Source of the DNA: Felixounavirus NRG857CP1
Sequence record: OZ035806.1
Length of the DNA: 64,000 bases
Direction: 5' to 3' (one strand)
Made by a program: the position numbers and the translations under genes
In this document: positions 3,122 through 63,585 of the stretch, in pieces
Numbering within the stretch: the stretch's first letter is position 1
How the letters are laid out: each line of letters opens with the position of its first letter
The notes under the pieces: generated by a model
Told to the model about the DNA's origin: nothing
Seen by the model: only the letters and a program-made list of their open reading frames with translations
The model's database searches: none

Positions 3122-3421
3122 TTAATCTGCCAACCTTAAATTAAAATTAACACCAAATTTTTCACATACTTCCAACATATACTCAAGGGAAACATTCCCA
3201 GTGAGGTGGATTATGTTGGATACACGAGCCTGAGAGATACCACAAATTTTAGCAACTTGCTCTTGAGAAAGACCTCTGGATTTAATCTCTCTCTTAAAAC
3301 GATGTGCAACGAAGTCTCTCATTTCGTCTACATCCATTGGACAAATATAACTCTCCATTTCAGCCTCTCTATCAGCCTCCCAATCATCTTGTGGGGCATA
3401 AGGGTCAAAAACCTCATTCAT
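3122..3421 (-). CDS. helix-turn-helix (XRE-like) DNA-binding protein
   Basis: C-terminal RGLSQEQVAKICGISQARVSNI HTH-like segment; start chosen at internal Met (MNEVF) to limit overlap; track ORF extends to 3451. Confidence 0.5.
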   Translation of the reverse strand: MNEVFDPYAPQDDWEADREAEMESYICPMDVDEMRDFVAHRFKREIKSRGLSQEQVAKICGISQARVSNIIHLTGNVSLEYMLEVCEKFGVNFNLRLAD

Positions 3422-3626
3422 CTTTCTTCTTCCGTTTGCGTGAAGTGTCAATCAATGAATCTATGTTTGTAGCTCTAACCTTTTCACGTTCATCGTTAAG
3501 ATAATCATCAAGAGCCTTTTCAATCTGTGAATCATCTTGACAGATAACTGTAAAGACTGTAAATCCGTCTTTATCGTCAATTATCTTACCATAACCGCTT
3601 CTGGGATGTAACTTTTTAAGAGCCAT
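3414..3626 (-). CDS. hypothetical small protein
   Basis: 70 aa ORF, basic C-terminus. Confidence 0.3.
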   Translation of the reverse strand: MALKKLHPRSGYGKIIDDKDGFTVFTVICQDDSQIEKALDDYLNDEREKVRATNIDSLIDTSRKRKKKDE

Positions 3627-3627
3627 A

Positions 3628-4011
3628 TCAAATACCTGTGCAGCTTCTGTTTTCTAAGAAATACTCCACACCATACATAGCTTTTTGCATCAAATCTTCT
3701 TTAAACTGGATACGATGGTTGAGCATAGCCTGTACATCAATATCATCATGGTGCTTCTCTTTAATGTTTGCAGATTGCAGGAAATACTCTGCAAGAACAC
3801 GATATTGGTAGTCAGTCACCTTATCAGTCATCTCTGTCAAAGACTCTTCAGAGATTGGTTTAAGTAGCTCACCTTTAGATAGAGCAACACCTTTTACAAT
3901 ATGGCAAGTGTCTTCTGGAACACCTGATAAGTCCACATTTGGAAGTTCTGTTGCATTGACTGGTAAATTTATTGCCATAACCATTGCAGCAGCTAATAAA
4001 ATCTTTTTCAT
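3628..4011 (-). CDS. secreted/periplasmic protein with signal peptide
   Basis: MKKILLAAAMVMAINLPVNA-TE signal peptide-like N-terminus. Confidence 0.5.
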   Translation of the reverse strand: MKKILLAAAMVMAINLPVNATELPNVDLSGVPEDTCHIVKGVALSKGELLKPISEESLTEMTDKVTDYQYRVLAEYFLQSANIKEKHHDDIDVQAMLNHRIQFKEDLMQKAMYGVEYFLENRSCTGI

Positions 4012-4129
4012 AATGACCTCAAAGTTATATTAAATTTTGTATTACATTGAGTATAAAAATAAGCTATAACACCTGACTTGTCAACAGATTTTATAGCTTA
4101 TTTGGCAGATTTTTTATAAGGCTACTGCC

Positions 4130-4430
4130 ATCCTTCCATACATTACCTAACCAAGCCGAACATCACACAACCAGACCGAGCCGCACCCCGCCTTATTAAA
4201 AGACCCTCTTTAAAGACCTTTTAAAAAGGTGAGTCTCATTTTAATGTAGCTGAGACTAACTACCCATACCGAACCTCACCGCACCATACTACACCTGACA
4301 CCACCTTACACCACCGCACCATACCTGACCGAGCTACACATCACTTAAAAACCCTTTTCAAAGACTCTTAAGTGATGCTGGTGAGTACCCGTTGGTTTAT
4401 GCTGCTCAGTATACTCACCAAATTTTCTAT
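4130..4430. repeat. two tandem diverged repeat units (CA-rich tract + AAAGACC box + hairpin) in a 400-bp intergenic region
   Basis: unit 1 hairpin GAGTCTC..GAGACT, unit 2 hairpin GGTGAGTA..TACTCACC; both preceded by CCGAAC..CACCGCACC tracts and TTAAAAGACCCTCTTTAAAGAC / TTAAAAACCCTTTTCAAAGAC. Confidence 0.5.
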
Positions 4431-4431
4431 G

Positions 4432-4620
4432 TCAACAACTTTCTAATAAAGTTTTATGAAGATTTTGCTTAACAACCCGCCTCACATGCCTGTGCTCTTT
4501 CTTAATAAAGAGTGACCTCTTCTTGATAGAGCGCCTATTCTTGTAAGTATTACTAGGATACTTATCATGAACCGGACAACAGCTACCCGGATTGGTAAAC
4601 TTGATAATCTCTCTTTTCAC
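4432..4620 (-). CDS. small basic protein (uncertain)
   Basis: 62 aa, Lys/Arg-rich; low complexity; may be non-coding. Confidence 0.25.
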   Translation of the reverse strand: MKREIIKFTNPGSCCPVHDKYPSNTYKNRRSIKKRSLFIKKEHRHVRRVVKQNLHKTLLESC

Positions 4621-5720
4621 TATTCATAATCCCTAATAACTAACCCGACAGGGAACTGTAAAGAACCCTTACGAGTCATCTTCTGAAACTGAACCGTTAA
4701 AGGCTTCCCGATAAACTCTTCAGGATGTTCAGCAAGATACTGTTTCTTCTCGTGTGTAGTCTTCCATGAGACATCTACAAAGACGTTAGGAAGAGTCTCT
4801 ACAACGAACTTGCCATGACCACGTTTATCGGTCTTTACACCAGTCACTTTAAACTCTTCAGTGTGCATCTTCTTATGCTTAATCAAGAAGTATGAACGGT
4901 GACAACACTCATAGAAGGAGTCTTCAGAGATTGAGCGGTACATTGCACCTTCAAACTTAGCTTCAACCCACTTATCATGAGCTTCATCAAACTCTTCCCA
5001 AGAATTTACACGGATAGTCTGTACAGGAACCACTCTACAGGTATCCCCAAGCTCAACAATAGGTGAGTTATCAATAACTTCACGACGCTCAGGCCAAGAT
5101 TTTGAATTGTCACAGATATCATACCAGTAGAATTTAAGAAGGTGACGGTCTGGATTGTCAGCATTCTTAATCATAGATACAATATCTTCTAAGTCCCAGC
5201 CATGAGCATAAATCTCTCCATCAAAGTCTTCAACTTGCGGATGTAATTTAAGCAACAAAAGTAAGTCTGGGATTAGTTCTGCTGGAACGTTGTAAACAGT
5301 ATTCTCACGAGAATAAGCTGTGAAACTGACTGAATCAGCATCTCTTGAAATTCTACAACGTACACCATCCAGTTTTGGTTGAGCATCAGCAGGGAACTTC
5401 AGATACTTTGCATGACTAACCTTTGCAGCATCATGAGCAAGCTGTACACCTACCTTCTCAGTATTCTGTGCAGACTCTTTTGTGTAAGCATAACCTTTAC
5501 GGTCAACTTGCTTTTTATACTTAGCAGCAACTTCAAAGAGAGCTTGCTGTTCAGCGTTACGCTCATTCTTTTTACCGATGTTTTTCGGTTCTGCTGTGTA
5601 CTCTTCAAACATCATCTTGCCATTTTCTTTACCATAGGTTGTAATAACTTTGTCACCTACAGCAACGCATGACCAGACGTTGAAAGAGCCATCTTTATTT
5701 TGTTTGTATAGGATTGTCAT
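4620..5720 (-). CDS. ATP-dependent DNA ligase
   Basis: KLDGVRC adenylation motif (KxDG); start placed at internal Met with GAGG RBS (track ORF extends to 5753). Confidence 0.8.
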   Translation of the reverse strand: MTILYKQNKDGSFNVWSCVAVGDKVITTYGKENGKMMFEEYTAEPKNIGKKNERNAEQQALFEVAAKYKKQVDRKGYAYTKESAQNTEKVGVQLAHDAAKVSHAKYLKFPADAQPKLDGVRCRISRDADSVSFTAYSRENTVYNVPAELIPDLLLLLKLHPQVEDFDGEIYAHGWDLEDIVSMIKNADNPDRHLLKFYWYDICDNSKSWPERREVIDNSPIVELGDTCRVVPVQTIRVNSWEEFDEAHDKWVEAKFEGAMYRSISEDSFYECCHRSYFLIKHKKMHTEEFKVTGVKTDKRGHGKFVVETLPNVFVDVSWKTTHEKKQYLAEHPEEFIGKPLTVQFQKMTRKGSLQFPVGLVIRDYE

Positions 5721-5722
5721 TT

Positions 5723-5914
5723 TTATTCCTCTGAGTGATACCAAGTATTGCAAGCATTACATGCGTAAAGCTCTAAGTCATTTTTATCTGGTTTATGAAA
5801 ACAGTTTGCTCCGCAGTGGCAACGAAATGGCTTTCCACCAACTGTCAGGACGAAGGACTGAATCTTTCCATCAGGAGTCCGTACAGCATTTTTATACTTA
5901 TCTTCTTTGTTCAT
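5723..5914 (-). CDS. small zinc-finger protein
   Basis: 63 aa; CHC..C and CNAC cysteine/histidine clusters. Confidence 0.35.
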   Translation of the reverse strand: MNKEDKYKNAVRTPDGKIQSFVLTVGGKPFRCHCGANCFHKPDKNDLELYACNACNTWYHSEE

Positions 5915-43490: not shown

Positions 43491-43763
43491 ATGTACACTA
43501 CTAACAACGGTCGCACCTTAAACGTAACCCTACGCCACTATGTGAACGGTGTAATGCACTTCGAGGATTTACAAGCTGAGCAACATATCTTAGATTGGCA
43601 AGTAGCAGGACTCCAAAAAACTGCTACGGGATACGGTAAAAAGATTCCAACCAGTTGGAAAGTACACTACGAAGGACGTTTGCGCAGAATTTATCAGGAT
43701 GTGCAAAGCAATAGCGCATCGAGTTACATTATAGTAAAAGGCAAAAAACTGCATTTAATGTAA
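43491..43763 (+). CDS. small early-type protein
   Basis: 90 aa; preceded by class I cassette. Confidence 0.45.
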   Translation: MYTTNNGRTLNVTLRHYVNGVMHFEDLQAEQHILDWQVAGLQKTATGYGKKIPTSWKVHYEGRLRRIYQDVQSNSASSYIIVKGKKLHLM

Positions 43764-43849
43764 AGTACTTTACATGGGGCTTGGAAGTTGATATCTTAAG
43801 CCCCAGATAAAGAGCTTTACCACTCAATCCTAAATTGGAGAACTTAAAA
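43764..43849 (+). promoter_or_regulatory. class II promoter cassette
   Basis: TTTACATGGGGCTTGGAAGTTGATATCTTAAGCCCCAGATAAAGAGCTTTACC. Confidence 0.55.
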
Positions 43850-44254
43850 ATGGCTATTAATAACCGTGAATTATCAATGTTAAAAGCACGTTTGACCGTT
43901 AATCGAATCAACATTATGACATCATCAGCGCCTGATGAGACATTGCACAACATTATCGGAAAGATTCAAAGCGTTATTTTAGACGTTGAAAACGTAAAAA
44001 GTTCATTGGCTGACGTTGCAGCAGGTATCACGCTAGACGGTGCGCAATATGAAATGTCCGACATGTTAGGCAAATCAAAGGTAATGAATAAAGAGCTTGA
44101 TTTAAAGATGTTCCGATTTGCTGTTAAAGTATGGCTATCCGTCGAGTATGACGCTAATTTTGCAATCGCTGATTTCTTTGCCACTTGGTTACAACGTAAT
44201 TTGACAAATCACGATTTTCGTGATGTCTGTGATGCAATTTATGCAGAACTCTAA
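43850..44254 (+). CDS. small early-type protein
   Basis: start set at Met after GGAGAACTTAAAA RBS (track ORF begins 43835). Confidence 0.45.
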   Translation: MAINNRELSMLKARLTVNRINIMTSSAPDETLHNIIGKIQSVILDVENVKSSLADVAAGITLDGAQYEMSDMLGKSKVMNKELDLKMFRFAVKVWLSVEYDANFAIADFFATWLQRNLTNHDFRDVCDAIYAEL

Positions 44255-44262
44255 AAAATTTT

Positions 44263-44355
44263 GTTGACACTGGTTTTTAGATAGATTAAATTACACATCA
44301 ACGGGGAGGGAATGACCTTCCCCACTAAATAAAGTCCTAAACTGGAGATTCTAAA
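44263..44355 (+). promoter_or_regulatory. class I promoter-hairpin-RBS cassette
   Basis: TTGACA-17-TAAATT, then CAACGGGGAGGGAATGACCTTCCCCACTAAATAAA..GGAGATTCTAAAATG. Confidence 0.6.
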
Positions 44356-44559
44356 ATGGCTATTATTAACGGTTTAACCATTGAAACTACACACATCAAA
44401 GATATCAAAGTTGGCGATATAGTCCTTTCCCACGGCGTAGAAAAAACTGTCACTGCAAAGGATATCAAAGAGGATTCTTTCATGGGTAGGACTCTTTTCG
44501 GTGATTCTTATTGCTTAGGTTACCTTGCAGTTTTAAAAGTTGTCAAAAATAACAAATAA
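44356..44559 (+). CDS. small early-type protein
   Basis: 67 aa; preceded by class I cassette. Confidence 0.45.
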   Translation: MAIINGLTIETTHIKDIKVGDIVLSHGVEKTVTAKDIKEDSFMGRTLFGDSYCLGYLAVLKVVKNNK

Positions 44560-44561
44560 AG

Positions 44562-44643
44562 TACTTTACAAGGGGCTTATAAGTCTGTAAAGTAAGCCCC
44601 AGATAAAGAGCTTTACACAATCCTTAAACTAGGAGATTAAAAA
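44562..44643 (+). promoter_or_regulatory. class II promoter cassette
   Basis: TTTACAAGGGGCTTATAAGTCTGTAAAGTAAGCCCCAGATAAAGAGCTTTAC..AGGAGATTAAAAAATG. Confidence 0.55.
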
Positions 44644-45186
44644 ATGAAATGCTATCACGGAACTACTCAAGAAAATTTCCTCAACCTGATTAATAACGGT
44701 GATAAACCATCAGGCGCATGGAATTGTTCGGATATGGACGGCAATTTTTACGTGTATCCAGAAAATAAAATCTATGGCGACGATGAGGAAGAAATAGCAT
44801 CAGAGGGCATTCAGCAAGCTCTAGGCAATGCCACTATCACCGCAGCTTTTCAGATGAAGACTCAAAATATTGTTATCTTAGAACTCGATATTCCAGAGGA
44901 TGAGCTAAATGATGATTATTCTTGTGATAATATGTCGAGTGTAGCAAGTTTTACAGAGTACTTTGATGTAAATTGGATTAAAAAGGTCTATACAACAGAG
45001 TTTAACGCTATGTATTCACCTTTTTGTCTTCCTTCATTGGATAACCCAAATTTAAACTATCTTGATGAGTCTCTGGAGCTTCTTGCTAAAAGTGTTCAAC
45101 AGTCGGACAGTATTCAGGTTTTTTGTGACATCATGGATACACTGACAGGAAACATTGCAGAAGAGGATTTAAAGAGCTTTTTCTAA
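44644..45186 (+). CDS. early-type acidic protein
   Basis: 180 aa; preceded by class II cassette; followed by hairpin AGCCCC..GGGGCT. Confidence 0.45.
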   Translation: MKCYHGTTQENFLNLINNGDKPSGAWNCSDMDGNFYVYPENKIYGDDEEEIASEGIQQALGNATITAAFQMKTQNIVILELDIPEDELNDDYSCDNMSSVASFTEYFDVNWIKKVYTTEFNAMYSPFCLPSLDNPNLNYLDESLELLAKSVQQSDSIQVFCDIMDTLTGNIAEEDLKSFF

Positions 45187-45212
45187 AAACCTATGCAATC
45201 ACCTTATAAACA

Positions 45213-45238
45213 CTAATCAGCCCCTTGTAGGGGCTTTT
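45213..45238 (+). terminator. terminator-like hairpin
   Basis: CAGCCCC-TTGTA-GGGGCTTTT. Confidence 0.45.
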
Positions 45239-45252
45239 AGAGGGCTTAAATC

Positions 45253-45486
45253 ATGCTTACAACCATTTACCTCATCCTTTCCATCTGTAATGGTCATTCA
45301 TGTGATTTTAAAGGGCTTGAAGAGTTTACAGGAAGTAAAGAAAATGCTATTCAAGTTTGCCAGATAGCAAGACAAGACTATCCCGCTAGTGATGATATAC
45401 AATGTTACTTTAAGACAGAAGATGAAGACGGTATCTATTTTGACAGCGTAGATGGTCAGTATGAAATTATCATTGAAAAAGACTAG
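45253..45486 (+). CDS. small protein with signal-like N-terminus
   Basis: 77 aa; MLTTIYLILSICNGHSC. Confidence 0.35.
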   Translation: MLTTIYLILSICNGHSCDFKGLEEFTGSKENAIQVCQIARQDYPASDDIQCYFKTEDEDGIYFDSVDGQYEIIIEKD

Positions 45487-45489
45487 ACA

Positions 45490-45577
45490 AGCCTGATAAA
45501 AATCTGTAAATTGTCAATCAACGGGGAGGGAATGACCTTCCCCACTAAGTACAATCCTTAAACTAGGAGATTCAAAA
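45490..45577 (+). promoter_or_regulatory. class I promoter-hairpin-RBS cassette
   Basis: GTAAATTGTCAATCAACGGGGAGGGAATGACCTTCCCCACTAAGTACAA..AGGAGATTCAAAAATG. Confidence 0.55.
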
Positions 45578-45919
45578 ATGGCTTATGTAACCGTAATTAC
45601 CGATAAAGAAAATTCATCTTGGTCAACTCAAGTAAGTGATAAGATGTCACCTATGCAGTGCCTAAAATACTTTGAACAGTGGAACAAAGGCGAGGACACA
45701 AGCCCCTTTCAAGTGATGCAGATTATCCATGTAGATAACGAAGGGAATAAAACGGTTTTAAATAGTGAGTACTACGCAAGCCGTTTTGAAACGAGAAGTA
45801 AAACAATGAAGCTTTTACGTGAATCCGGTTACTCCCATATCGCCGCGCTAATCTGGGATGACCTGCTAAAAAACCAACGTATCAGCTATGTAAAACCTGA
45901 AAAAATATTCATCAGTTAA
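45578..45919 (+). CDS. small early-type protein
   Basis: 113 aa; preceded by class I cassette. Confidence 0.45.
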   Translation: MAYVTVITDKENSSWSTQVSDKMSPMQCLKYFEQWNKGEDTSPFQVMQIIHVDNEGNKTVLNSEYYASRFETRSKTMKLLRESGYSHIAALIWDDLLKNQRISYVKPEKIFIS

Positions 45920-46059
45920 TCAATAACTTACAAAAAACTTTTAAAAAAAATGTTGACAATACCCCTTGACATTGGTAACTTTGTTCGAGGGGGTTTATCT
46001 AAAAGGGATTCACTTAAAAGATTCTTTATAGATAAGCTCAAAAAATTACTTGCAATCAG

Positions 46060-46142
46060 CTATCAAAACAAGTAAATTACTAATCAACGGGGAGGGAATG
46101 ACCTTCCCCACTAAGTAAAATCCTTAAACTAGGAGAGTCAAA
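46060..46142 (+). promoter_or_regulatory. class I promoter-hairpin-RBS cassette
   Basis: AAGTAAATTACTAATCAACGGGGAGGGAATGACCTTCCCCACTAAGTAAAA..AGGAGAGTCAAAATG. Confidence 0.55.
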
Positions 46143-57952: not shown

Positions 57953-58029
57953 CTCTGTTTAGCTCAGCTTGGTAGAGCGTTCCGTTTGGGGCGGTAAGGC
58001 CGGAGGTTCAAGTCCTCCAACAGAGACCA
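57953..58029 (+). tRNA. tRNA-Pro (anticodon TGG)
   Basis: manual fold: acceptor CTCTGTT/AACAGAG, D-arm GCTCAGCTTGGTAGAGC, anticodon loop TTTGGGG, T-loop GGAGGTTCAAGTCCTCC, CCA encoded. Confidence 0.7.
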
Positions 58030-58036
58030 AATTAAT

Positions 58037-58114
58037 GTTCCAGTAGACAAAACGGTAAAGTCACCACTCTTTCAAAGTGGATATTTGAGGGTTCAAATCC
58101 CTTCTGGAACGCCA
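58037..58114 (+). tRNA. tRNA-Glu (anticodon TTC)
   Basis: acceptor GTTCCAG/CTGGAAC; anticodon arm CCACT-CTTTCAA-AGTGG; T-loop GAGGGTTCAAATCCCTT. Confidence 0.7.
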
Positions 58115-58121
58115 GTTTTGA

Positions 58122-58194
58122 CAGAAGACCAATTACAGCAAACTTAATCTTATTCATCTGAAGCTAAATCGGACAAAGAAGAGATTTGGTCTGG
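58122..58194 (+). repeat. inter-tRNA spacer element A (CAGAAGACC..GGTCTGG family)
   Basis: 5' box CAGAAGACCAATTACAGCAA, 3' box TTGGTCTGG; arms AGACCAA/TTGGTCT can pair. Confidence 0.5.
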
Positions 58195-58205
58195 TCATTA
58201 AGAAT

Positions 58206-58282
58206 TGCGGGTATAGAGAAAGGGCGTCTCACATGTCTCATTAGCATGGTATCGGCAGGTTCGACTCCTGCACCCGCCTCCA
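58206..58282 (+). tRNA. tRNA-Met or Ile2 (anticodon CAT)
   Basis: T8A9, D-stem GAGA/TCTC, anticodon arm CATGT-CTCATTA-GCATG, T-loop GCAGGTTCGACTCCTGC; acceptor base 1-72 ambiguous. Confidence 0.55.
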
Positions 58283-58288
58283 ATTTTG

Positions 58289-58348
58289 CAGAAGACCGTA
58301 TGCAGCAATAAACTACTTTTTGCGGATAAAAGAAAAAACACGGTCTGG
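58289..58348 (+). repeat. inter-tRNA spacer element B (CAGAAGACC..GGTCTGG family)
   Basis: CAGAAGACCGTATGCAGCAA...ACACGGTCTGG; arm pair GACCGT/ACGGTC covaries relative to element A. Confidence 0.5.
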
Positions 58349-58359
58349 CAATGTATTAA

Positions 58360-58436
58360 GGTTAGGAAGCACATAAGGTATGTGCGGTCGCCTGTTAAGC
58401 GAATGGCACAGGGTTCGAATCCCTGACTAACCGCCA
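58360..58436 (+). tRNA. tRNA-Asn (anticodon GTT)
   Basis: acceptor GGTTAGG/ACTAACC, anticodon loop CTGTTAA, T-loop CAGGGTTCGAATCCCTG, CCA encoded. Confidence 0.7.
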
Positions 58437-58445
58437 AATTTAAAT

Positions 58446-58533
58446 GTGTCGTTATCCCGTAGATGGTAGCGGTGGGGACTGTAAATCCCTTGTCATTGAG
58501 ACTCGGTAGGTTCGACTCCTACACGGCACACCA
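58446..58533 (+). tRNA. tRNA-Tyr (anticodon GTA), long variable arm
   Basis: anticodon arm GGGGA-CTGTAAA-TCCCT; long variable arm; T-loop GTAGGTTCGACTCCTAC; CCA encoded. Confidence 0.7.
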
Positions 58534-58539
58534 AATAAA

Positions 58540-58616
58540 GGTTATGTAGTTTAACTGGATAAAATACTCCCCTGTCACGGGAGATGATGTGAGTTCAAGT
58601 CTCATCGTAACCGCCA
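58540..58616 (+). tRNA. tRNA-Asp (anticodon GTC)
   Basis: acceptor GGTTATG/CGTAACC, anticodon arm CTCCC-CTGTCAC-GGGAG, T-loop GTGAGTTCAAGTCTCAT. Confidence 0.7.
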
Positions 58617-58677
58617 ATTTTGAGAGGGCTATTTAGCTCCTCCCTTAAAGAGTTCTTACGAGTATTCTTTAAAGGAG

Positions 58678-58754
58678 CAGAAGACCAATTACAGCAAGTA
58701 CGTATGATATTTTCAAGCCAATTTAATTTTGAAAAAATTTAAAACTTGGTCTGG
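58678..58754 (+). repeat. inter-tRNA spacer element C1 (CAGAAGACC..GGTCTGG family)
   Basis: CAGAAGACCAATTACAGCAAG...AAACTTGGTCTGG. Confidence 0.5.
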
Positions 58755-58767
58755 CTCAACAAATTTA

Positions 58768-58899
58768 CAGAAGACCGTTTACAGCAAAACTTAAACAATC
58801 TATTTCTCCGGTAAAGAAAAGGCGAAGGTTCGATTCCTTCACTCGGCAGATGTCGAGTTGGTGTAATGGTAGCACTTAAGATGATAAACAACGGTCTGG
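58768..58899 (+). repeat. inter-tRNA spacer element C2, containing tRNA-like fragments
   Basis: CAGAAGACCGTTTACAGCAAAAC...AACAACGGTCTGG; internal GAAGGTTCGATTCCTTC T-arm-like and GTCGAGTTGGTGTAATGGTAGCAC D-arm-like pieces in non-canonical order. Confidence 0.45.
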
Positions 58900-58900
58900 T

Positions 58901-59044
58901 AATTATCTTTGTAGATAAGTTATTAAGCTTACCTGTGAGTATGCGACCACAAAGGGTGAAAGGGTAAATTCTAGATTTAAACCCAACAAGGCACATCGCT
59001 ACAGACCTTAAGCAAGTCTGGGTAGCTTATCTACAAAGATAATT
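58901..59044. repeat. element bounded by a perfect 19-bp inverted repeat
   Basis: left AATTATCTTTGTAGATAAG, right CTTATCTACAAAGATAATT, about 106 bp between. Confidence 0.55.
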
Positions 59045-59048
59045 TAAT

Positions 59049-59124
59049 GGAAGTGTAGCAGAATGGTGATGCGGCAGACTTTTAATCTGACAGGCGATGG
59101 GTTCGAATCCCTCCACTTCTACCA
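59049..59124 (+). tRNA. tRNA-Lys (anticodon TTT)
   Basis: acceptor GGAAGTG/CACTTCT, anticodon loop CTTTTAA, T-loop TGGGTTCGAATCCC; paralogous to tRNA at 60758. Confidence 0.6.
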
Positions 59125-59128
59125 ATAT

Positions 59129-59205
59129 GGTTCAGTCGCAGATAAGGTAATGCAGGGGTCTCATAAGCCCTATGAATGTGGGTTCGATTCCCATCTGAAC
59201 CTCCA
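59129..59205 (+). tRNA. tRNA-Met (anticodon CAT), three G-C pairs in anticodon stem
   Basis: acceptor GGTTCAG/CTGAACC, anticodon arm GGGGT-CTCATAA-GCCCT, T-loop GTGGGTTCGATTCCCAT. Confidence 0.6.
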
Positions 59206-59207
59206 AT

Positions 59208-59282
59208 TGTGGGTTAGCATAAATGGTAATGCAAACGGCTGATAACCGTTAGAAGAGGGTTCGATACCCTCACCTACAACCA
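59208..59282 (+). tRNA. tRNA-Ile (anticodon GAT)
   Basis: D-arm GCATAAATGGTAATGC, anticodon arm AACGG-CTGATAA-CCGTT, T-loop GAGGGTTCGATACCCTC. Confidence 0.7.
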
Positions 59283-59296
59283 ATTTCAATAAAGTT

Positions 59297-59326
59297 GTTG
59301 ACATTAAGATGTGACCACTTTATAGT
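59297..59326 (+). promoter_or_regulatory. strong sigma70-like promoter inside tRNA cluster
   Basis: TTGACA-17 nt-TATAGT (GTTGTTGACATTAAGATGTGACCACTTTATAGTAACT). Confidence 0.55.
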
Positions 59327-59649
59327 AACTGAAAATGATTCAGCATATGTATAATTCAAACACCAATACATGAGTGTTAGACGTAACACAATGTGGGGAA
59401 ATTTGTTGTACATGTTCTGAATAGTTTTCGTTGCGTAGCGTCTATTTTGCAAATTTAAAATAAATGCAAACGACAATGTTTTTCTGGCAGTAGCTTGATA
59501 GGCTAAACACCAGTGAGGTCTTCCAATCCCTCATCAAAGAATTTGGCGTACTCGCCCACGGTATGATTAATAAGGTGGGCAACATTCTAAAGGGTATCCC
59601 TTATGGGGCTTGGCTTAAATGCAATGAGTACCCTTTAAAATGTTAATTA

Positions 59650-59731
59650 CGGGGCGTATCTCAGCGGTCTTCTAAACCGCCGTTAACCGAGTAAGTGGAG
59701 TATGCGGGTTCGAGTCCTGCCGCCTCGACCA
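59650..59731 (+). tRNA. atypical tRNA-like gene, possibly tRNA-Arg (TCT)
   Basis: canonical acceptor CGGGGCG/CGCCTCG, T-loop GCGGGTTCGAGTCCTGC, hairpin GCGGT-CTTCTAA-ACCGC; D region does not fold canonically. Confidence 0.4.
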
Positions 59732-59746
59732 ATTTTGGATGAAATC

Positions 59747-60094
59747 ATGAAAACTTGTATTAGGTGCAAACTTAGCAAGGATGAAAGTGATTTCTACATG
59801 AAAGATGGTAGGAGAACTCATTCATACTGTAAAAAGTGTGTTAATGAGCAAACCATAGAAAGACAAAGAGCACTTAAACTTTCAGCTATTGAGTACAAAG
59901 GTGGGGTTTGTCATGATTGTGGTAAAAGGTATCATCCAGCAGTGTATGACTTCCATCATTTGAATCCTTCAGATAAAGATTTTAACATTGGTCATAGAAA
60001 AAGTCTTAAGTTCTCTCAGGAGCTAAAGGACGAACTTGACAAATGTGTTTTGCTATGTTCAAATTGCCATAGGGTAAGACATGCAAAGTATTAG
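59747..60094 (+). CDS. HNH endonuclease embedded in tRNA cluster
   Basis: CIRC..CKKC zinc finger, HH..N..H core, CSNCH; start at ATG just after tRNA (track ORF begins 59702 inside the tRNA). Confidence 0.7.
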   Translation: MKTCIRCKLSKDESDFYMKDGRRTHSYCKKCVNEQTIERQRALKLSAIEYKGGVCHDCGKRYHPAVYDFHHLNPSDKDFNIGHRKSLKFSQELKDELDKCVLLCSNCHRVRHAKY

Positions 60095-60231
60095 TTAGCA
60101 GATTGCTTAGACGACCTTATCGGGTCTCCGTGTAAGGAGGTGGTCTGTATCTCATGTTTTCCAGAACATGTAAATAATCTGAGAAGGGGCTTTACAGTGT
60201 TGAGATAATACGGTAAGCTTCGAATTATAGT

Positions 60232-60314
60232 ATGGGACGATGTTAAGACTCTAAGGCATGAGCAACGGCCTCCAAAACCGTTTCAAAGGGGTTCAACTCC
60301 TCCGTCCCATGCCA
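60232..60314 (+). tRNA. tRNA-Trp (anticodon CCA), extended D region
   Basis: acceptor ATGGGAC/GTCCCAT, anticodon arm ACGGC-CTCCAAA-ACCGT, T-loop GGGGTTCAACTCCTCC; D region about 7 nt longer than usual. Confidence 0.45.
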
Positions 60315-60327
60315 AAGTCTTATTAGG

Positions 60328-60415
60328 GGTAGGTAGCGGCTAATGGCAGCCAAACAGTCTTGAAAACTGTTGCCACTGTAGAGATACGGTGAGGGTTCGA
60401 CTCCTTTACTTACCG
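60328..60415 (+). tRNA. tRNA-Ser (anticodon TGA), long variable arm
   Basis: anticodon arm ACAGT-CTTGAAA-ACTGT; about 20-nt variable arm; T-loop GAGGGTTCGACTCCTTT. Confidence 0.7.
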
Positions 60416-60572
60416 CCTAATAAGATTTAAAGCCAAGCTTCATTCGGATGTTGCTTTGGTATACCGCGTGTATTGTTGTACGCACTGATAAAGCACCTAG
60501 TAGGTGTCACGGAGAAGAGATAATATCAAGCTCTCCAAAGGTTCTAGTCACCGGATTAAACAAGACTATGCA

Positions 60573-60596
60573 AAGACCTTTTTAGGTCTTTTTAGA
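60573..60596 (+). terminator. terminator-like hairpin in tRNA cluster
   Basis: AAAGACC-TTTTTA-GGTCTTTTT. Confidence 0.4.
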
Positions 60597-60672
60597 GGGC
60601 TTCTAAGGTTATTACAGCTTGTTGTGGAACCTTGTTGCTTAGGTTCTTAGAAGTTCTCTAAAAAGATTTAAT

Positions 60673-60750
60673 GGGAGATTGACGGTAATTGGTAAACCTA
60701 CCATCCTTAGAAGTTGGTGTTTGAGGGTTCGAATCCCTTGTCTCCTACCA
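60673..60750 (+). tRNA. tRNA-Leu (anticodon TAG), short variable arm
   Basis: acceptor GGGAGAT/GTCTCCT, anticodon arm CCATC-CTTAGAA-GTTGG, T-loop GAGGGTTCGAATCCCTT, A73. Confidence 0.5.
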
Positions 60751-60757
60751 AATTAAT

Positions 60758-60833
60758 GCAGGTGTAGCAAAATGGTTATGCGGCTGACTCTTAATCAGTA
60801 AGACGATGGGTTCAATTCCCTCCACCTGTACCA
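60758..60833 (+). tRNA. tRNA-Lys (anticodon CTT)
   Basis: acceptor GCAGGTG/CACCTGT, anticodon arm GCTGA-CTCTTAA-TCAGT, T-loop TGGGTTCAATTCCC. Confidence 0.65.
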
Positions 60834-60839
60834 AAAAAT

Positions 60840-60915
60840 GGGGTCATAGTTTATATGGTTAAAATTCGAGTTTTGCAAACTTGGGAACTGAGTTCAATTC
60901 TCAGTGACTCCACCA
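60840..60915 (+). tRNA. tRNA-Ala (anticodon TGC)
   Basis: acceptor GGGGTCA/TGACTCC with G3-U70 pair (Ala identity element); anticodon arm CGAGT-TTTGCAA-ACTTG; T-loop CTGAGTTCAATTCTCAG. Confidence 0.75.
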
Positions 60916-60921
60916 ATTAGT

Positions 60922-60996
60922 GCATCCATAGTTTAAACGGGAAAATTACAGTCTTCCAAACTGAGGTTGAGGGTTCGATTCCCTCTGGATGCTCCA
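60922..60996 (+). tRNA. tRNA-Gly (anticodon TCC)
   Basis: acceptor GCATCCA/TGGATGC, anticodon arm ACAGT-CTTCCAA-ACTGA, T-loop GAGGGTTCGATTCCCTC. Confidence 0.75.
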
Positions 60997-61003
60997 AATT
61001 AAT

Positions 61004-61079
61004 GCTCCTATCGTATAATTGGCTATTACGGTTGCCTTGTAAGCAACTTATCAGGGTTCGAATCCTTGTGGGAGCACCA
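61004..61079 (+). tRNA. tRNA-Thr (anticodon TGT)
   Basis: acceptor GCTCCTA/TGGGAGC, anticodon arm GTTGC-CTTGTAA-GCAAC, T-loop CAGGGTTCGAATCCTTG. Confidence 0.75.
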
Positions 61080-61175
61080 ATTCAGAGGTCAAGTGAAAGA
61101 CCGCTTTGAGTCAACTGAAGACCGTAACAAATTCCACGGAGTTGAGTTAGCGGCACAACTTCAGACCTCTTTCAC

Positions 61176-61250
61176 ACTCGCTTAGTTTATATGGTAAAAC
61201 ACCACCCTTACAAGATGAAGAAAAAGGTTCAAGTCCTTTAGTGAGTACCA
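61176..61250 (+). tRNA. tRNA-Val (anticodon TAC), weak anticodon stem
   Basis: acceptor ACTCGCT/AGTGAGT, D-arm GTTT..AAAC, anticodon loop CTTACAA, T-loop AAAGGTTCAAGTCCTTT. Confidence 0.5.
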
Positions 61251-61251
61251 T

Positions 61252-61329
61252 GTTCCAGTATCCCAATTGGCAGAGGATGCAAGCTCAAACCTTGTATTAG
61301 TGACGGTTCGAATCCGTCTTGGAACACCA
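61252..61329 (+). tRNA. tRNA-Leu (anticodon CAA), short variable arm
   Basis: acceptor GTTCCAG/TTGGAAC, anticodon arm GCAAG-CTCAAAC-CTTGT, T-loop GACGGTTCGAATCCGTC, A73. Confidence 0.5.
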
Positions 61330-61334
61330 ATTTT

Positions 61335-61410
61335 GCAGGATTAGTTCAAATGGATAGAGCAACAGTCTACGAAACTGTTAATAGGGGTTCGAATCCCTTA
61401 TCCTGCGCCA
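61335..61410 (+). tRNA. tRNA-Arg (anticodon ACG)
   Basis: acceptor GCAGGAT/ATCCTGC, anticodon arm ACAGT-CTACGAA-ACTGT, T-loop GGGGTTCGAATCCC. Confidence 0.75.
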
Positions 61411-61428
61411 GATAAGCAAGAGGAATTT

Positions 61429-61671
61429 ATGCAAACATTAATCGTCGTTGAACATGAAAATCCCAATAGTATTGAGTTTGTAAGGGTTCCCACTATAGAT
61501 ACCCACATTTTCTTAAAAGTCGGATGGGAATGCGACCCAATAAAAGTAGAAAGATTTATTGGTCATTGCTTTTGTGGAAGACAACTTAAAAGTGTCAATT
61601 TTGAGACAATGTTACCAGAAAGCTCAGAAACAAGTAATAATGCTTACCTCCTTACGAGGGTTAGACAATGA
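61429..61671 (+). CDS. hypothetical small protein in tRNA cluster
   Basis: 80 aa ORF with AGGAAT RBS-like sequence. Confidence 0.35.
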   Translation: MQTLIVVEHENPNSIEFVRVPTIDTHIFLKVGWECDPIKVERFIGHCFCGRQLKSVNFETMLPESSETSNNAYLLTRVRQ

Positions 61672-62225
61672 GATACTTAAAATATGCTTCATGGATTTTC
61701 TTAGCTTTGCTAGAACCACTTGCAGCAATACTAGCAGTTATCTTAGCACCTTTCGTAGTTCCATTCTACAGTGAGAAGAAAGGACATCTACCTTTTGGAT
61801 TCAGATGGATGGAGACCTATGACAACCCAATTGATGGTGATGAAGGTCACGTTAAAAGATGGGCTAATATTAGATGGATTGGTAAACTAGGTGTCTACAT
61901 GCAAAGAGTTGGATGGCTCTGGAGAAACAAAGCTTATAACTTCTCTTACCATGTGTTAGGAAGAGATGTAAAAGATGTTACTAAGTGGAAAGGTAATATC
62001 AACGTAAGTTCTAACCCTGAAGATAATCAGACTGGTTATCTCCTAATGTGGAACAGGAATGCTTGGGGATTATTCGCTTTTATCCCATCAATTAAAATCT
62101 TTGGTAAACAATTTTACTGGAGAATTTATATTGGATGGAAACTAAAAAGCGTTGTCCCAGAAGAAAGAGCATTCTCAAGGGAAAGAGTTATGTTGGCATT
62201 CTTTATTCATCCACTAAGAAAGTAA
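61668..62225 (+). CDS. hypothetical membrane-associated protein in tRNA cluster
   Basis: 185 aa; N-terminal hydrophobic helices; Trp-rich. Confidence 0.4.
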   Translation: MRYLKYASWIFLALLEPLAAILAVILAPFVVPFYSEKKGHLPFGFRWMETYDNPIDGDEGHVKRWANIRWIGKLGVYMQRVGWLWRNKAYNFSYHVLGRDVKDVTKWKGNINVSSNPEDNQTGYLLMWNRNAWGLFAFIPSIKIFGKQFYWRIYIGWKLKSVVPEERAFSRERVMLAFFIHPLRK

Positions 62226-62233
62226 AGATTTAA

Positions 62234-62309
62234 AGGGGATTAGTTTACAAGGTTAAAACCTCGGTCTTTGAAATCGAAGAAGTTGGTTCAATTCCAACAT
62301 CCCCCGCCA
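62234..62309 (+). tRNA. tRNA-Gln (anticodon TTG)
   Basis: anticodon arm TCGGT-CTTTGAA-ATCGA, D-arm GTTT..AAAC, T-loop GTTGGTTCAATTCCAAC, CCA encoded. Confidence 0.65.
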
Positions 62310-62311
62310 AT

Positions 62312-62390
62312 GCTCCATTACTCCAATTGGCAGAGAGGCCAGACTTAAAATCTGTGTTATGTATCGGTTCGAATCCGATATGGAGTACCA
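62312..62390 (+). tRNA. tRNA-Leu (anticodon TAA), short variable arm
   Basis: acceptor GCTCCAT/ATGGAGT, anticodon loop CTTAAAA, T-loop ATCGGTTCGAATCCGAT, A73. Confidence 0.55.
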
Positions 62391-62395
62391 AATTT

Positions 62396-62471
62396 AGCGG
62401 TATAGCATAACTGGCAATGCAGCAGTCTCTGAAGCTGTCTTATTAAGGTTCAAATCCTTATGCCGCTGCCA
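62396..62471 (+). tRNA. tRNA-Gln (anticodon CTG)
   Basis: acceptor AGCGGTA/TGCCGCT, D-arm GCAT..ATGC, anticodon arm GCAGT-CTCTGAA-GCTGT, T-loop TAAGGTTCAAATCCTTA. Confidence 0.6.
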
Positions 62472-62502
62472 CTTCTAAGGATTCTTACGAGAGTCCTTAA
62501 AT

Positions 62503-62578
62503 GTGGCCTTATCATAAATGGTAATGACCCATGCTGTGAACATGGTCTATACGGGTTCAAATCCCGTAGGTCACCCCA
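62503..62578 (+). tRNA. tRNA-His (anticodon GTG)
   Basis: anticodon arm CCATG-CTGTGAA-CATGG, T-loop ACGGGTTCAAATCCCGT, discriminator C73. Confidence 0.7.
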
Positions 62579-62583
62579 ATTTA

Positions 62584-62658
62584 TAGTCCAAGTAGCTTAT
62601 ATGGTTAAAGCGCGTGTCTGAAAAACATGAGAAGAGGGTTCAAATCCCACTGGACTAC
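62584..62658 (+). tRNA. tRNA-Phe (anticodon GAA)
   Basis: acceptor TAGTCCA/TGGACTA, anticodon arm CGTGT-CTGAAAA-ACATG, T-loop GAGGGTTCAAATCCCAC; junction between acceptor and D-arm ambiguous. Confidence 0.6.
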
Positions 62659-62676
62659 CAATTTCAAAGGTGCTTA

Positions 62677-63411
62677 ATGAAAGAGATGACAGAACAAGGT
62701 AAGGAGATTTTTAATCTCTTAAAAACTGGTAAAGGGTTTTCTAACCCCCTTATTACTGGTGCAGCAGTTCTCGGTGGAACCGTAGCTGCCTCTACATCAC
62801 TTGTAAGCTCTATTAGCTCTGTATCAGACCCTACAGTAAAGGATAAGCTTGTTGCTGCTGGACTTACAACAGTCCTTCTAAACAGCTTTACAACAAGCCT
62901 TACAAGCACTACAGCAACTACTAAAACTCTGACAGACTATGGTCAAAAGTCTATTGATGAGTTTTCATCACGTATGCAGGTAGCAAAGGGGTATTCCAAT
63001 GTTATGGGTGCAGCAGGAGAACAAGTTGGTTGTACACCATTCAGTGGTATCATGGGTGTTGCTACAGAGTATGGTCAAAAAGCTATTGATATGATGAACA
63101 GTACACTAGATAGTGTTAATGGTGTGTTAAGTGACTTGCAAGATGCTATTGATAAGGGTCTTGATACTGTTTCTGATTTAGCTAATCAAGCTGTTAGTAA
63201 GATTAATGAAGGTATTTCAAAGATTACAGCTTATGCAGATGAAGTTGTGCAGATGATTGAAGAAGAAGCTGCCCTTATTGCAGAGTACCTTAAAACGAAT
63301 ATCAATGGGTTCTTAGCAGGCATCTTACCAGACTGGTTTGATGATGCCTGTAAAACTGGTGTAATTGACACTATTGCAACACCAGAAATGAAGAGCGCAT
63401 TACAGAAATAA
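62677..63411 (+). CDS. hypothetical Ser/Thr/Ala-rich protein
   Basis: start at ATG after tRNA-Phe (track ORF begins at GTG 62614 inside the tRNA). Confidence 0.4.
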   Translation: MKEMTEQGKEIFNLLKTGKGFSNPLITGAAVLGGTVAASTSLVSSISSVSDPTVKDKLVAAGLTTVLLNSFTTSLTSTTATTKTLTDYGQKSIDEFSSRMQVAKGYSNVMGAAGEQVGCTPFSGIMGVATEYGQKAIDMMNSTLDSVNGVLSDLQDAIDKGLDTVSDLANQAVSKINEGISKITAYADEVVQMIEEEAALIAEYLKTNINGFLAGILPDWFDDACKTGVIDTIATPEMKSALQK

Positions 63412-63412
63412 T

Positions 63413-63505
63413 GGAAGATTAACCCTAAAAGGTAAGGGAGCAGTTTGCTAAACTGCCAGTAGCTGAGAAATCGGTGTACCAGTTCAAGTCTGGTATCTTC
63501 CTCCA
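63413..63505 (+). tRNA. tRNA-Ser (anticodon GCT), long variable arm
   Basis: acceptor GGAAGAT/ATCTTCC, anticodon arm GCAGT-TTGCTAA-ACTGC, long variable arm, T-loop ACCAGTTCAAGTCTGGT. Confidence 0.7.
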
Positions 63506-63509
63506 ATTT

Positions 63510-63585
63510 GAATCCGTGACAGAAATGGCTATGTGCCTGTCTGCAAAACAGGTTTATAAGGGTTCGAGTCCCTTCGGATTCTCCA
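63510..63585 (+). tRNA. tRNA-Cys (anticodon GCA)
   Basis: acceptor GAATCCG/CGGATTC, anticodon arm CCTGT-CTGCAAA-ACAGG, T-loop AAGGGTTCGAGTCCCTT, U73. Confidence 0.7.

Follow-up and report, generated by a model that had tools for sequence, protein, structure and literature searches.

Two predicted VIPR-type guide-RNA genes without vipr or vap in a Felixounavirus genome, most likely a recent remnant of a type II locus

In the 64,000-nucleotide stretch of Felixounavirus NRG857CP1 DNA analysed here (hereafter the window; sequence record OZ035806.1), a gap of 420 bp containing two consecutive units is bordered by two minus-strand genes, namely a hypothetical ORF (3628-4011) on its downstream side and an ATP-dependent DNA ligase gene (4620-5753; Pfam PF01068). 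An earlier note on this DNA had described two consecutive units, each composed of a C/A-rich tract, a GGTCTTTAA-type box and hairpins, lying between two minus-strand genes, and in these respects its description is confirmed; the coordinates that it gave (4130-4430) cover both arrays, the tails and the spacers, and most, though not all, of the promoter P1. Read along the minus strand, the elements follow one another as P1, a hairpin that includes box A, 17 pentamers, a tail, a U-run with box B, 12 pentamers, a GGCAG/CTGCC hairpin, and a second promoter (P2). P1 (4408-4435, minus strand) is sigma-70-like (TTGACA-16-TATACT, 11/12 matches), lies just downstream of the ligase region, and is presumed to drive transcription of the first unit, termed vrRNA-1 below. 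The relatives read over the upstream intergenic region (AYO145A, Felix O1, Moogle, and VpaE1) all carry the same promoter sequence. P2 (4056-4084, minus strand; TTGACA-17-TATTTT), also sigma-70-like, is placed for ORF 3628-4011 and marks the 3' boundary of the region; its equivalent carries a promoter annotation in AYO145A. A terminator scan of the region found no canonical intrinsic terminator. Promoters do flank the region, but the repeated units themselves are not promoters, and the suggestion of a duplicated promoter/operator is not borne out. Between the ligase gene and the gap lies a 62-aa ORF (4432-4620, minus strand) encoding a basic, Cys-containing product with no match in a Pfam search; its stop codon falls inside the -35 hexamer of P1, and a small ORF is annotated at the equivalent position in VpaE1.

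The CA-rich tracts of the plus strand are the complements of two arrays of GGY-NN pentamers on the minus strand. The first (vrRNA-1; 4261-4345, minus strand) consists of 17 phased pentamers without a phase slip (AGTGA TGTGT AGCTC GGTCA GGTAT GGTGC GGTGG TGTAA GGTGG TGTCA GGTGT AGTAT GGTGC GGTGA GGTTC GGTAT GGGTA), with the guide NN in units 3-14. Its first two units are part of a leader hairpin and its last two are constant, which leaves ~13 guide units. The second (vrRNA-2; 4133-4192, minus strand) consists of 12 pentamers, likewise phased without a slip (GGCGG GGTGC GGCTC GGTCT GGTTG TGTGA TGTTC GGCTT GGTTA GGTAA TGTAT GGAAG), with the guide NN in units 1-10. Pentamers of the window have the form (G/A/T)G(T/C)NN. 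In vrRNA-1 the motif is imperfect, with GGY in 10/17 units and AGT, TGT or AGC in the others; a near-identical array is found in vipr-positive phages too, and the target match described below is retained.

Ordinary alignment of the two units is weak: the direct repeats fall into families 17-27 nt long that are 64-82% identical, and all that Tandem Repeats Finder detects within the tracts is a 24-nt period-10 stretch. Because conventional repeat finders return short matches only, the significance of the arrays lies in their strict 5-nt phase and not in unit-to-unit identity. The repeat similarity that the earlier note proposed is thus weak on formal alignment and significant in its phase. The motif GGTNNGGTNNGGTNNGGT, allowing at most one mismatch, occurs eight times in 64 kb, every time at these arrays (0.03 expected from shuffles), and a phase-aware search for arrays over the two strands of the entire window found just these two. 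Across 860 pentamers from 75 distinct arrays in 30 phage loci, positions 1-3 hold 0.94, 1.83, and 1.46 bits of information (G, G, T/C), and positions 4-5 hold 0.06 and 0.10 bits. Among relatives the NN bases and the array length (8-21 units) vary greatly, and the phase is always kept.

The vrRNA-1 tract is preceded by the box A leader/spacer hairpin (CATCACTTAA-GAGTCTTTGAAAAGGGTTT-TTAAGTGATG; 4339-4377, minus strand), an 18-bp inverted repeat whose 3' arm enters the first two vrRNA-1 pentamers; the stretch that contains it (4335-4400) folds at -19.6 kcal/mol (z = -3.7). The tract is followed by a 3' tail (4228-4265, minus strand) for which the alignment of 16 distinct internal tails, gapless throughout, supports an H-type pseudoknot, in which stem 1 (GUAG/CUAC, 4 bp) is interleaved with stem 2 (AGUCUCA/UGAGACU, 7 bp). 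Pairing in stem 2 is 100%, and 3/7 of its pairs show compensatory changes (GC/AU, UA/GC, CG/GC/GU/AU); the observed covariation score was reached by 0/500 shuffles, and no slid register approaches it. Stem 1 is uninformative because it is almost invariant. The covariation of stem 2 comes from our own alignment, and the putative pseudoknot as a whole rests partly on two preprints, both of which report a 3' pseudoknot (10.64898/2026.04.26.720920, 10.64898/2026.04.26.720927).

Between the two units lies a spacer (4193-4227, minus strand) with a U-run immediately after the tail and then box B (AAAGGTCTTTAAAGAGGGTCTTTTAA), a 26-nt box that is single in the window and is conserved between units in relatives; it may have a role in termination or processing. 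A box B hairpin predicted by folding was rejected, its 3' arm varying among relatives and its 5' arm showing no compensation. The two spacers (4193-4227 and 4339-4377, minus strand) have common half-boxes (GAGTCTTY…AGGGTYTTTTAA) resembling the rrn boxA, GCTCTTTAA; in Moogle the half-boxes are set apart by an insert of ~22 nt. The vrRNA-2 tail is of a terminal type, a simple GGCAG...CTGCC hairpin with an A-rich loop (4103-4130, minus strand), identified from the inverted repeat, folding, and comparison with relatives. Its folding is unremarkable (z = -0.7 for the 51-nt stretch folded), and it is conserved in all relatives. Direct sequence comparison shows GGTAG...CTACC in the corresponding tail ahead of vipr in relatives, where a C-G pair is replaced by U-A in a compensatory manner.

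The locus was matched by 259 phage records. Many relatives, AYO145A, garuso, dune, VpaE1, Moogle, and SUSP2 among them, have two genes of 588 nt and 441 nt inside the gap, with pentamer arrays on both sides of the gene pair and 3-5 arrays per phage; Felix O1 has a single array and neither gene. The 195-aa product of relatives is 97.9% identical to the phiSUSP1 gene, and it matches PDB entry 36pp ("SUSP1 Vipr protein") over its full length (E = 6e-128). VIPR consists of a phage-encoded RAMP-fold protein, Vipr (~20 kDa), and an accessory gene, vap; guide RNAs (vrRNAs) of 9-16 GGY/NN repeats and an invariant 3' tail flank vipr/vap, the model phage being SUSP1, of the Ounavirinae (bioRxiv 10.64898/2026.04.26.720920). 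The vrRNAs of SUSP1, ~100 nt in length, were seen by small-RNA sequencing and co-purify with Vipr; their NN dinucleotides recognise double-stranded DNA by pairing, passing over every third target base, and the natural targets of the SUSP1 clade lie in a satellite phage (10.64898/2026.04.26.720920). One Vipr protomer is bound per repeat, with the pseudoknot as a 3' cap (10.64898/2026.04.26.720927).

Because the gene that splits the same region in relatives matches SUSP1 Vipr, the arrays of the window are assigned to the vrRNA family, and the information profile of the 75 arrays reproduces the GGY/NN pattern of the VIPR preprint. Judged by sequence homology, the two units are guide-RNA genes related to the ~100-nt SUSP1 vrRNAs. 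"Small RNA pair", one of the options in the earlier note, was therefore essentially right, and "protein-binding array" holds at the RNA level, as one Vipr protomer per pentamer in Vipr-encoding relatives, and not otherwise. Nothing ties the adjacent HTH protein (3122-3451), which had been proposed as a partner, to the repeats; the note had seen the CA-rich tract and had missed that the pentamers are in phase, on which strand they lie, and that the gene for the cognate protein is absent. An Rfam scan of 3500-5000 with E up to 10 gave chance-level matches only, and Pfam found no families in Vipr, Vap or the neighbouring small ORFs. The Felix O1 genome paper lists other repeats and not these arrays, the PhageMaP paper on Bas63 does not mention the region, and the text of the VIPR preprint (10.64898/2026.04.26.720920) does not mention vipr-less Felixounavirus loci, the words "orphan" and "Felix" each occurring 0 times.

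Searches for the protein genes covered the window and the 84.4-kb NRG857CP1 genome. The window maps to positions 23085-84421 of the NRG857CP1 record OZ035796.1 (99.99%/99.8% identity, with one 2.6-kb insertion), and the first 23 kb of the window's own genome were covered through this 99.99%-identical proxy. With AYO145A Vipr as query, tblastn and phmmer returned nothing better than E = 0.26 (tblastn), and with a 146-aa Vap1 homologue the same searches returned nothing better than E = 0.2 (phmmer); neither query found anything in the 2.6-kb insertion. As a positive control, the Vipr/Vap queries score 99-100% identity in every vipr-positive locus. The locus therefore holds neither gene of a complete VIPR system and, because vipr and vap are absent from both the window and the proxy genome, is read as a probable vrRNA-only remnant. 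A blastn search with vipr and vap DNA against 5,426 complete E. coli genomes gave no match. The insertion itself (43498-46064), missing from the otherwise 99.99%-identical NRG857CP1 genome, is flanked by a direct repeat of ~85 bp (…AAAACAAGTAAATTACTAATCAACGGGGAGGGAATG…) and holds several small plus-strand ORFs of 72-181 aa; elsewhere in the window a cluster of 25 tRNA genes, typical for Felix O1-like phages, occupies 57953-63585 (plus strand). Vipr homologues of 23-44% identity occur in Gordonia, Mycobacterium, Pseudomonas, and Listonella phages. The 147-kb record "Staphylococcus phage SA1" (GU169904.1) contains a Felixounavirus vipr locus at 99.5% identity, which suggests a chimeric or contaminated record.

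Satellites were found with SUSP2 baseplate-hub DNA, and six copies were scanned, five from E. coli chromosomes (L008-L012) and one from IMG/VR (L038). The family is ~11-12 kb in length and occurs in 474 of the 5,426 complete E. coli genomes, where it is integrated at yciI/tonB or within a DUF72 gene that lies between yecD and yecN; it encodes a tape-measure protein, a large serine recombinase, and a baseplate hub like those of the Ounavirinae. The six copies contain neither vrRNA arrays nor vipr. NNxNNx patterns built under the skip rule were scanned against these six satellites, with shuffled guides as the null. In vipr-positive phages, 48/61 arrays match at least 80% of their NN bases, several of them perfectly, and these matches mostly exceed the best shuffled guide. 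The published 1-nt skip rule is thereby reproduced independently, by computation.

Both guides of the window have NN matches in these satellites. In all of IMG/VR just one exact match exists for the 22-base core of vrRNA-1, in the 682-aa tape-measure ORF of a satellite; 24 consecutive NN bases are matched (L038 10083-10132, minus strand) in frame, so that the skipped base is the codon wobble position of the tape-measure ORF. For vrRNA-2, 19/20 NN bases are matched at L009 8133-8167 on the minus strand (shuffle maximum 16), at a site that runs from the spacer through the ATG and over the first seven codons of a hypothetical satellite gene for 96 aa; the predicted target, on the plus strand of L009 8138-8167, is TTTTTACAATGACTCACACAGTTACGCGCC. 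The exact 20-base vrRNA-2 pattern has no match in IMG/VR, its target being found in E. coli chromosomal satellites only. Neither guide has a self-target in the window or in the proxy genome. The AYO145A copy of vrRNA-1 (L001 3783-3877) carries two extra pentamers (GGTGG TGTAA), and its tape-measure match is lost (20/34, within the null, vs 26-28/30 for the 17-unit copies); a 10-nt slippage appears able to break a guide, and the orphan copy of the window is a better guide than that of AYO145A.

Comparison with individual loci bears on how the arrangement arose. Two vipr-positive phages, dune and L026, carry the vrRNA-1 array, unchanged or almost so, as their first upstream array, and the array in the vipr-less L020 equals it exactly; the vrRNA-2 array recurs without change as the last one of the vipr-positive L031. 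Among the loci read, one other unit shares exactly the sequence that follows vrRNA-1, beginning with the constant GGTAT-GGGTA; once the remaining tails listed are excluded, we attribute it to the penultimate unit of L031. If an upstream and a downstream vrRNA underwent homologous recombination through their conserved tails, vipr, vap, and the vrRNAs in between would be lost and exactly the arrangement of the window would remain, which is the most likely origin of the locus. In our reading, the window at 4100-4435 (minus strand) is very probably the RNA half of a type II (SUSP1-clade) VIPR locus, without vipr and vap and most likely a recent remnant. It would comprise two tandem vrRNA genes, each a pentamer tract with a structured 3' tail. 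According to the two preprints, in Vipr-encoding phages one protomer binds each pentamer, hides its GGY and presents its NN, and the presented bases pair with DNA, skipping every third target base, to repress the target. The predicted target of both guides is a phage satellite found integrated in E. coli chromosomes: vrRNA-1 is aimed at its tape-measure gene, and vrRNA-2 at the translation start region of a small gene. In a single infection both RNAs are probably transcribed from P1 and lack their protein partner; transcribed and partnerless, they are therefore most likely a recent, undecayed remnant.

The alternative that retains most weight is that the orphan vrRNAs are functional and maintained, either loaded on Vipr from a co-infecting vipr-positive Ounavirinae phage or acting as decoys that titrate a competitor's Vipr; we judge it unlikely. 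The vipr-less state is common, accounting for 8 of the 22 complete IMG/VR loci (these eight with 1-2 arrays; the other 14 are vipr-positive) and for ~141 of the 259 GenBank records, Vipr being found in 118 Ounavirinae records; in the window P1, the tails, and the pentamer phase are all intact; and 7/13 orphan arrays still match satellites at >=80%, including matches of 22/22 and 19/20. Such frequency, together with matching orphans, could also mean maintenance. Satellites are, moreover, reported to bear vrRNAs of their own (10.64898/2026.04.26.720920); satellites with similar vrRNA tails were not found by blastn, because the vrRNA region had no match in the 5,426 E. coli genomes. Against maintenance, the arrays of the window are identical or nearly identical to arrays of vipr-positive phages and, because the same arrays sit in such phages, recent loss accounts for their integrity without selection. 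Orphan arrays also match satellites at >=80% less often (54%, 7/13) than vipr-positive arrays do (79%, 48/61; Fisher p = 0.08), and single-array vipr-less loci such as that of Felix O1 have poor GGY content (0.46) and a satellite match (16/22) that lies within the null, whereas two-array orphan loci such as the present one look freshly derived. Supply of Vipr in trans would need a co-infecting phage, because vipr-like DNA is absent from the 5,426 complete E. coli genomes and from the six satellites. We consider a recent remnant, transcribed without its partner, the most likely state, and use in trans a minority possibility. The broader proposition that vrRNA-only loci act as "guide cheaters" or decoys, their RNAs being loaded on the Vipr of another phage in co-infections, which are frequent in this phage group, with the presence/absence polymorphism of vipr-vap kept by recombination between tails, is unlikely to a similar degree.

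Far less probable is a cis-regulatory leader for the downstream operon, whether an antitermination site like the rrn/lambda nut sites or a TRAP-like attenuator. The sequence does present a hairpin, the boxA-like GGTCTTTAA, and a GU-rich tract (boxC) in that order, and GGTCTTTAA is one base different from the rrn boxA; a TRAP site consists of GAG/UAG triplets with 2-3-nt spacers, a similar 5-nt phase. The boxA core matches at 8/9 positions by eye; the GGTCTTTAA box occurs nowhere else in the window and the motif does not recur at other operon starts. ORF 3628-4011, which such a leader would serve, has its own near-consensus promoter, P2, after the units, and NN bases that are hypervariable and match foreign DNA are not predicted by a protein-binding leader. 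The homologous RNAs, furthermore, are experimentally Vipr guides.

A DNA-level element (a promoter/operator for the HTH protein, an R-loop-prone replication origin, or a GT-rich recombination hot spot) is scarcely credible: strong promoters on both flanks, a marked strand asymmetry with a G-rich non-template strand, and gene content that changes in relatives exactly at these repeats would suit it, but the covariation of tail stem 2 indicates a folded single strand and not a protein site on duplex DNA, the arrays occur at this locus alone and in every case on the transcribed strand (0 on the minus strand of 22 loci oriented with their arrays on the plus strand), the NN code matches satellite genes, and recombination between repeats is a consequence of their similarity and no evidence of a dedicated function. 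Candidate explanations that had been entertained earlier (boxA/nut, a TRAP-like attenuator, an R-loop origin, a RecA/Chi-like hot spot, a G-quadruplex, and an SD-like ribosome sponge) were all dropped, because the arrays proved homologous to characterised vrRNAs and their NN bases match satellite genes.

This class of RNA guide dates from 2026, is proposed to be older than CRISPR, and reads DNA by a gapped code. As the class and the phage lineage have already been published, no new kind of system is revealed here; the modest novelty is the vrRNA-only state with guides that still match. We add concrete predicted targets for both RNAs of the window, and the observation that about half of Felix O1-like phages, Felix O1 included, bear vrRNA genes without vipr/vap, several of which match satellites. 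This raises the question of whether such guides are leftovers of a recent loss or serve in trans. Repeated tails make the vipr-vap cassette easy to gain or lose and, if use in trans were true, it would amount to a shared or diverted anti-satellite defence, without the cost of the Vipr protein.

Among known systems, the rrn/lambda nut boxA resembles the locus in that GGTCTTTAA, one base from GCTCTTTAA, stands beside a hairpin and a GU-rich tract, a resemblance that is probably coincidental. The TRAP site of the Bacillus trp leader (11 GAG/UAG triplets) shares triplets phased at ~5 nt, each taken by one protein subunit, and this analogy, drawn without the preprints, had rightly pointed to an RNA-binding partner that is oligomeric; TRAP differs in its fold, in acting by attenuation as opposed to DNA targeting, and in spacer bases that are uninformative, and there is no homology. 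CRISPR arrays are alike in comprising tandem small guide-RNA genes with a variable targeting part, a constant structured handle, and RAMP-fold protein binders, and orphan CRISPR arrays likewise hold guides without effector genes. Unlike CRISPR, the vrRNA guide is non-contiguous (2/5 RNA bases read 2/3 DNA bases), and vrRNA loci have neither repeat-spacer units nor acquisition genes and match no Rfam family. The closest counterparts are the vrRNAs of type II VIPR, from which the window differs in having no vipr/vap in the locus or genome and two vrRNAs instead of 3-5. Its 17 and 12 units become ~15 and 12 when the two leader-hairpin units of vrRNA-1 are set aside, against the 9-16 units of VIPR. 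In other respects the two are alike: both belong to the Ounavirinae and sit at the same genomic position, with the DNA ligase gene on one side and the homologue of Felix O1 ORF87 on the other, both consist of GGY-NN tracts with a conserved, pseudoknot-bearing 3' tail and NN bases that match satellite DNA with a 1-nt skip, and one array of the window is identical to that of a vipr-positive phage.
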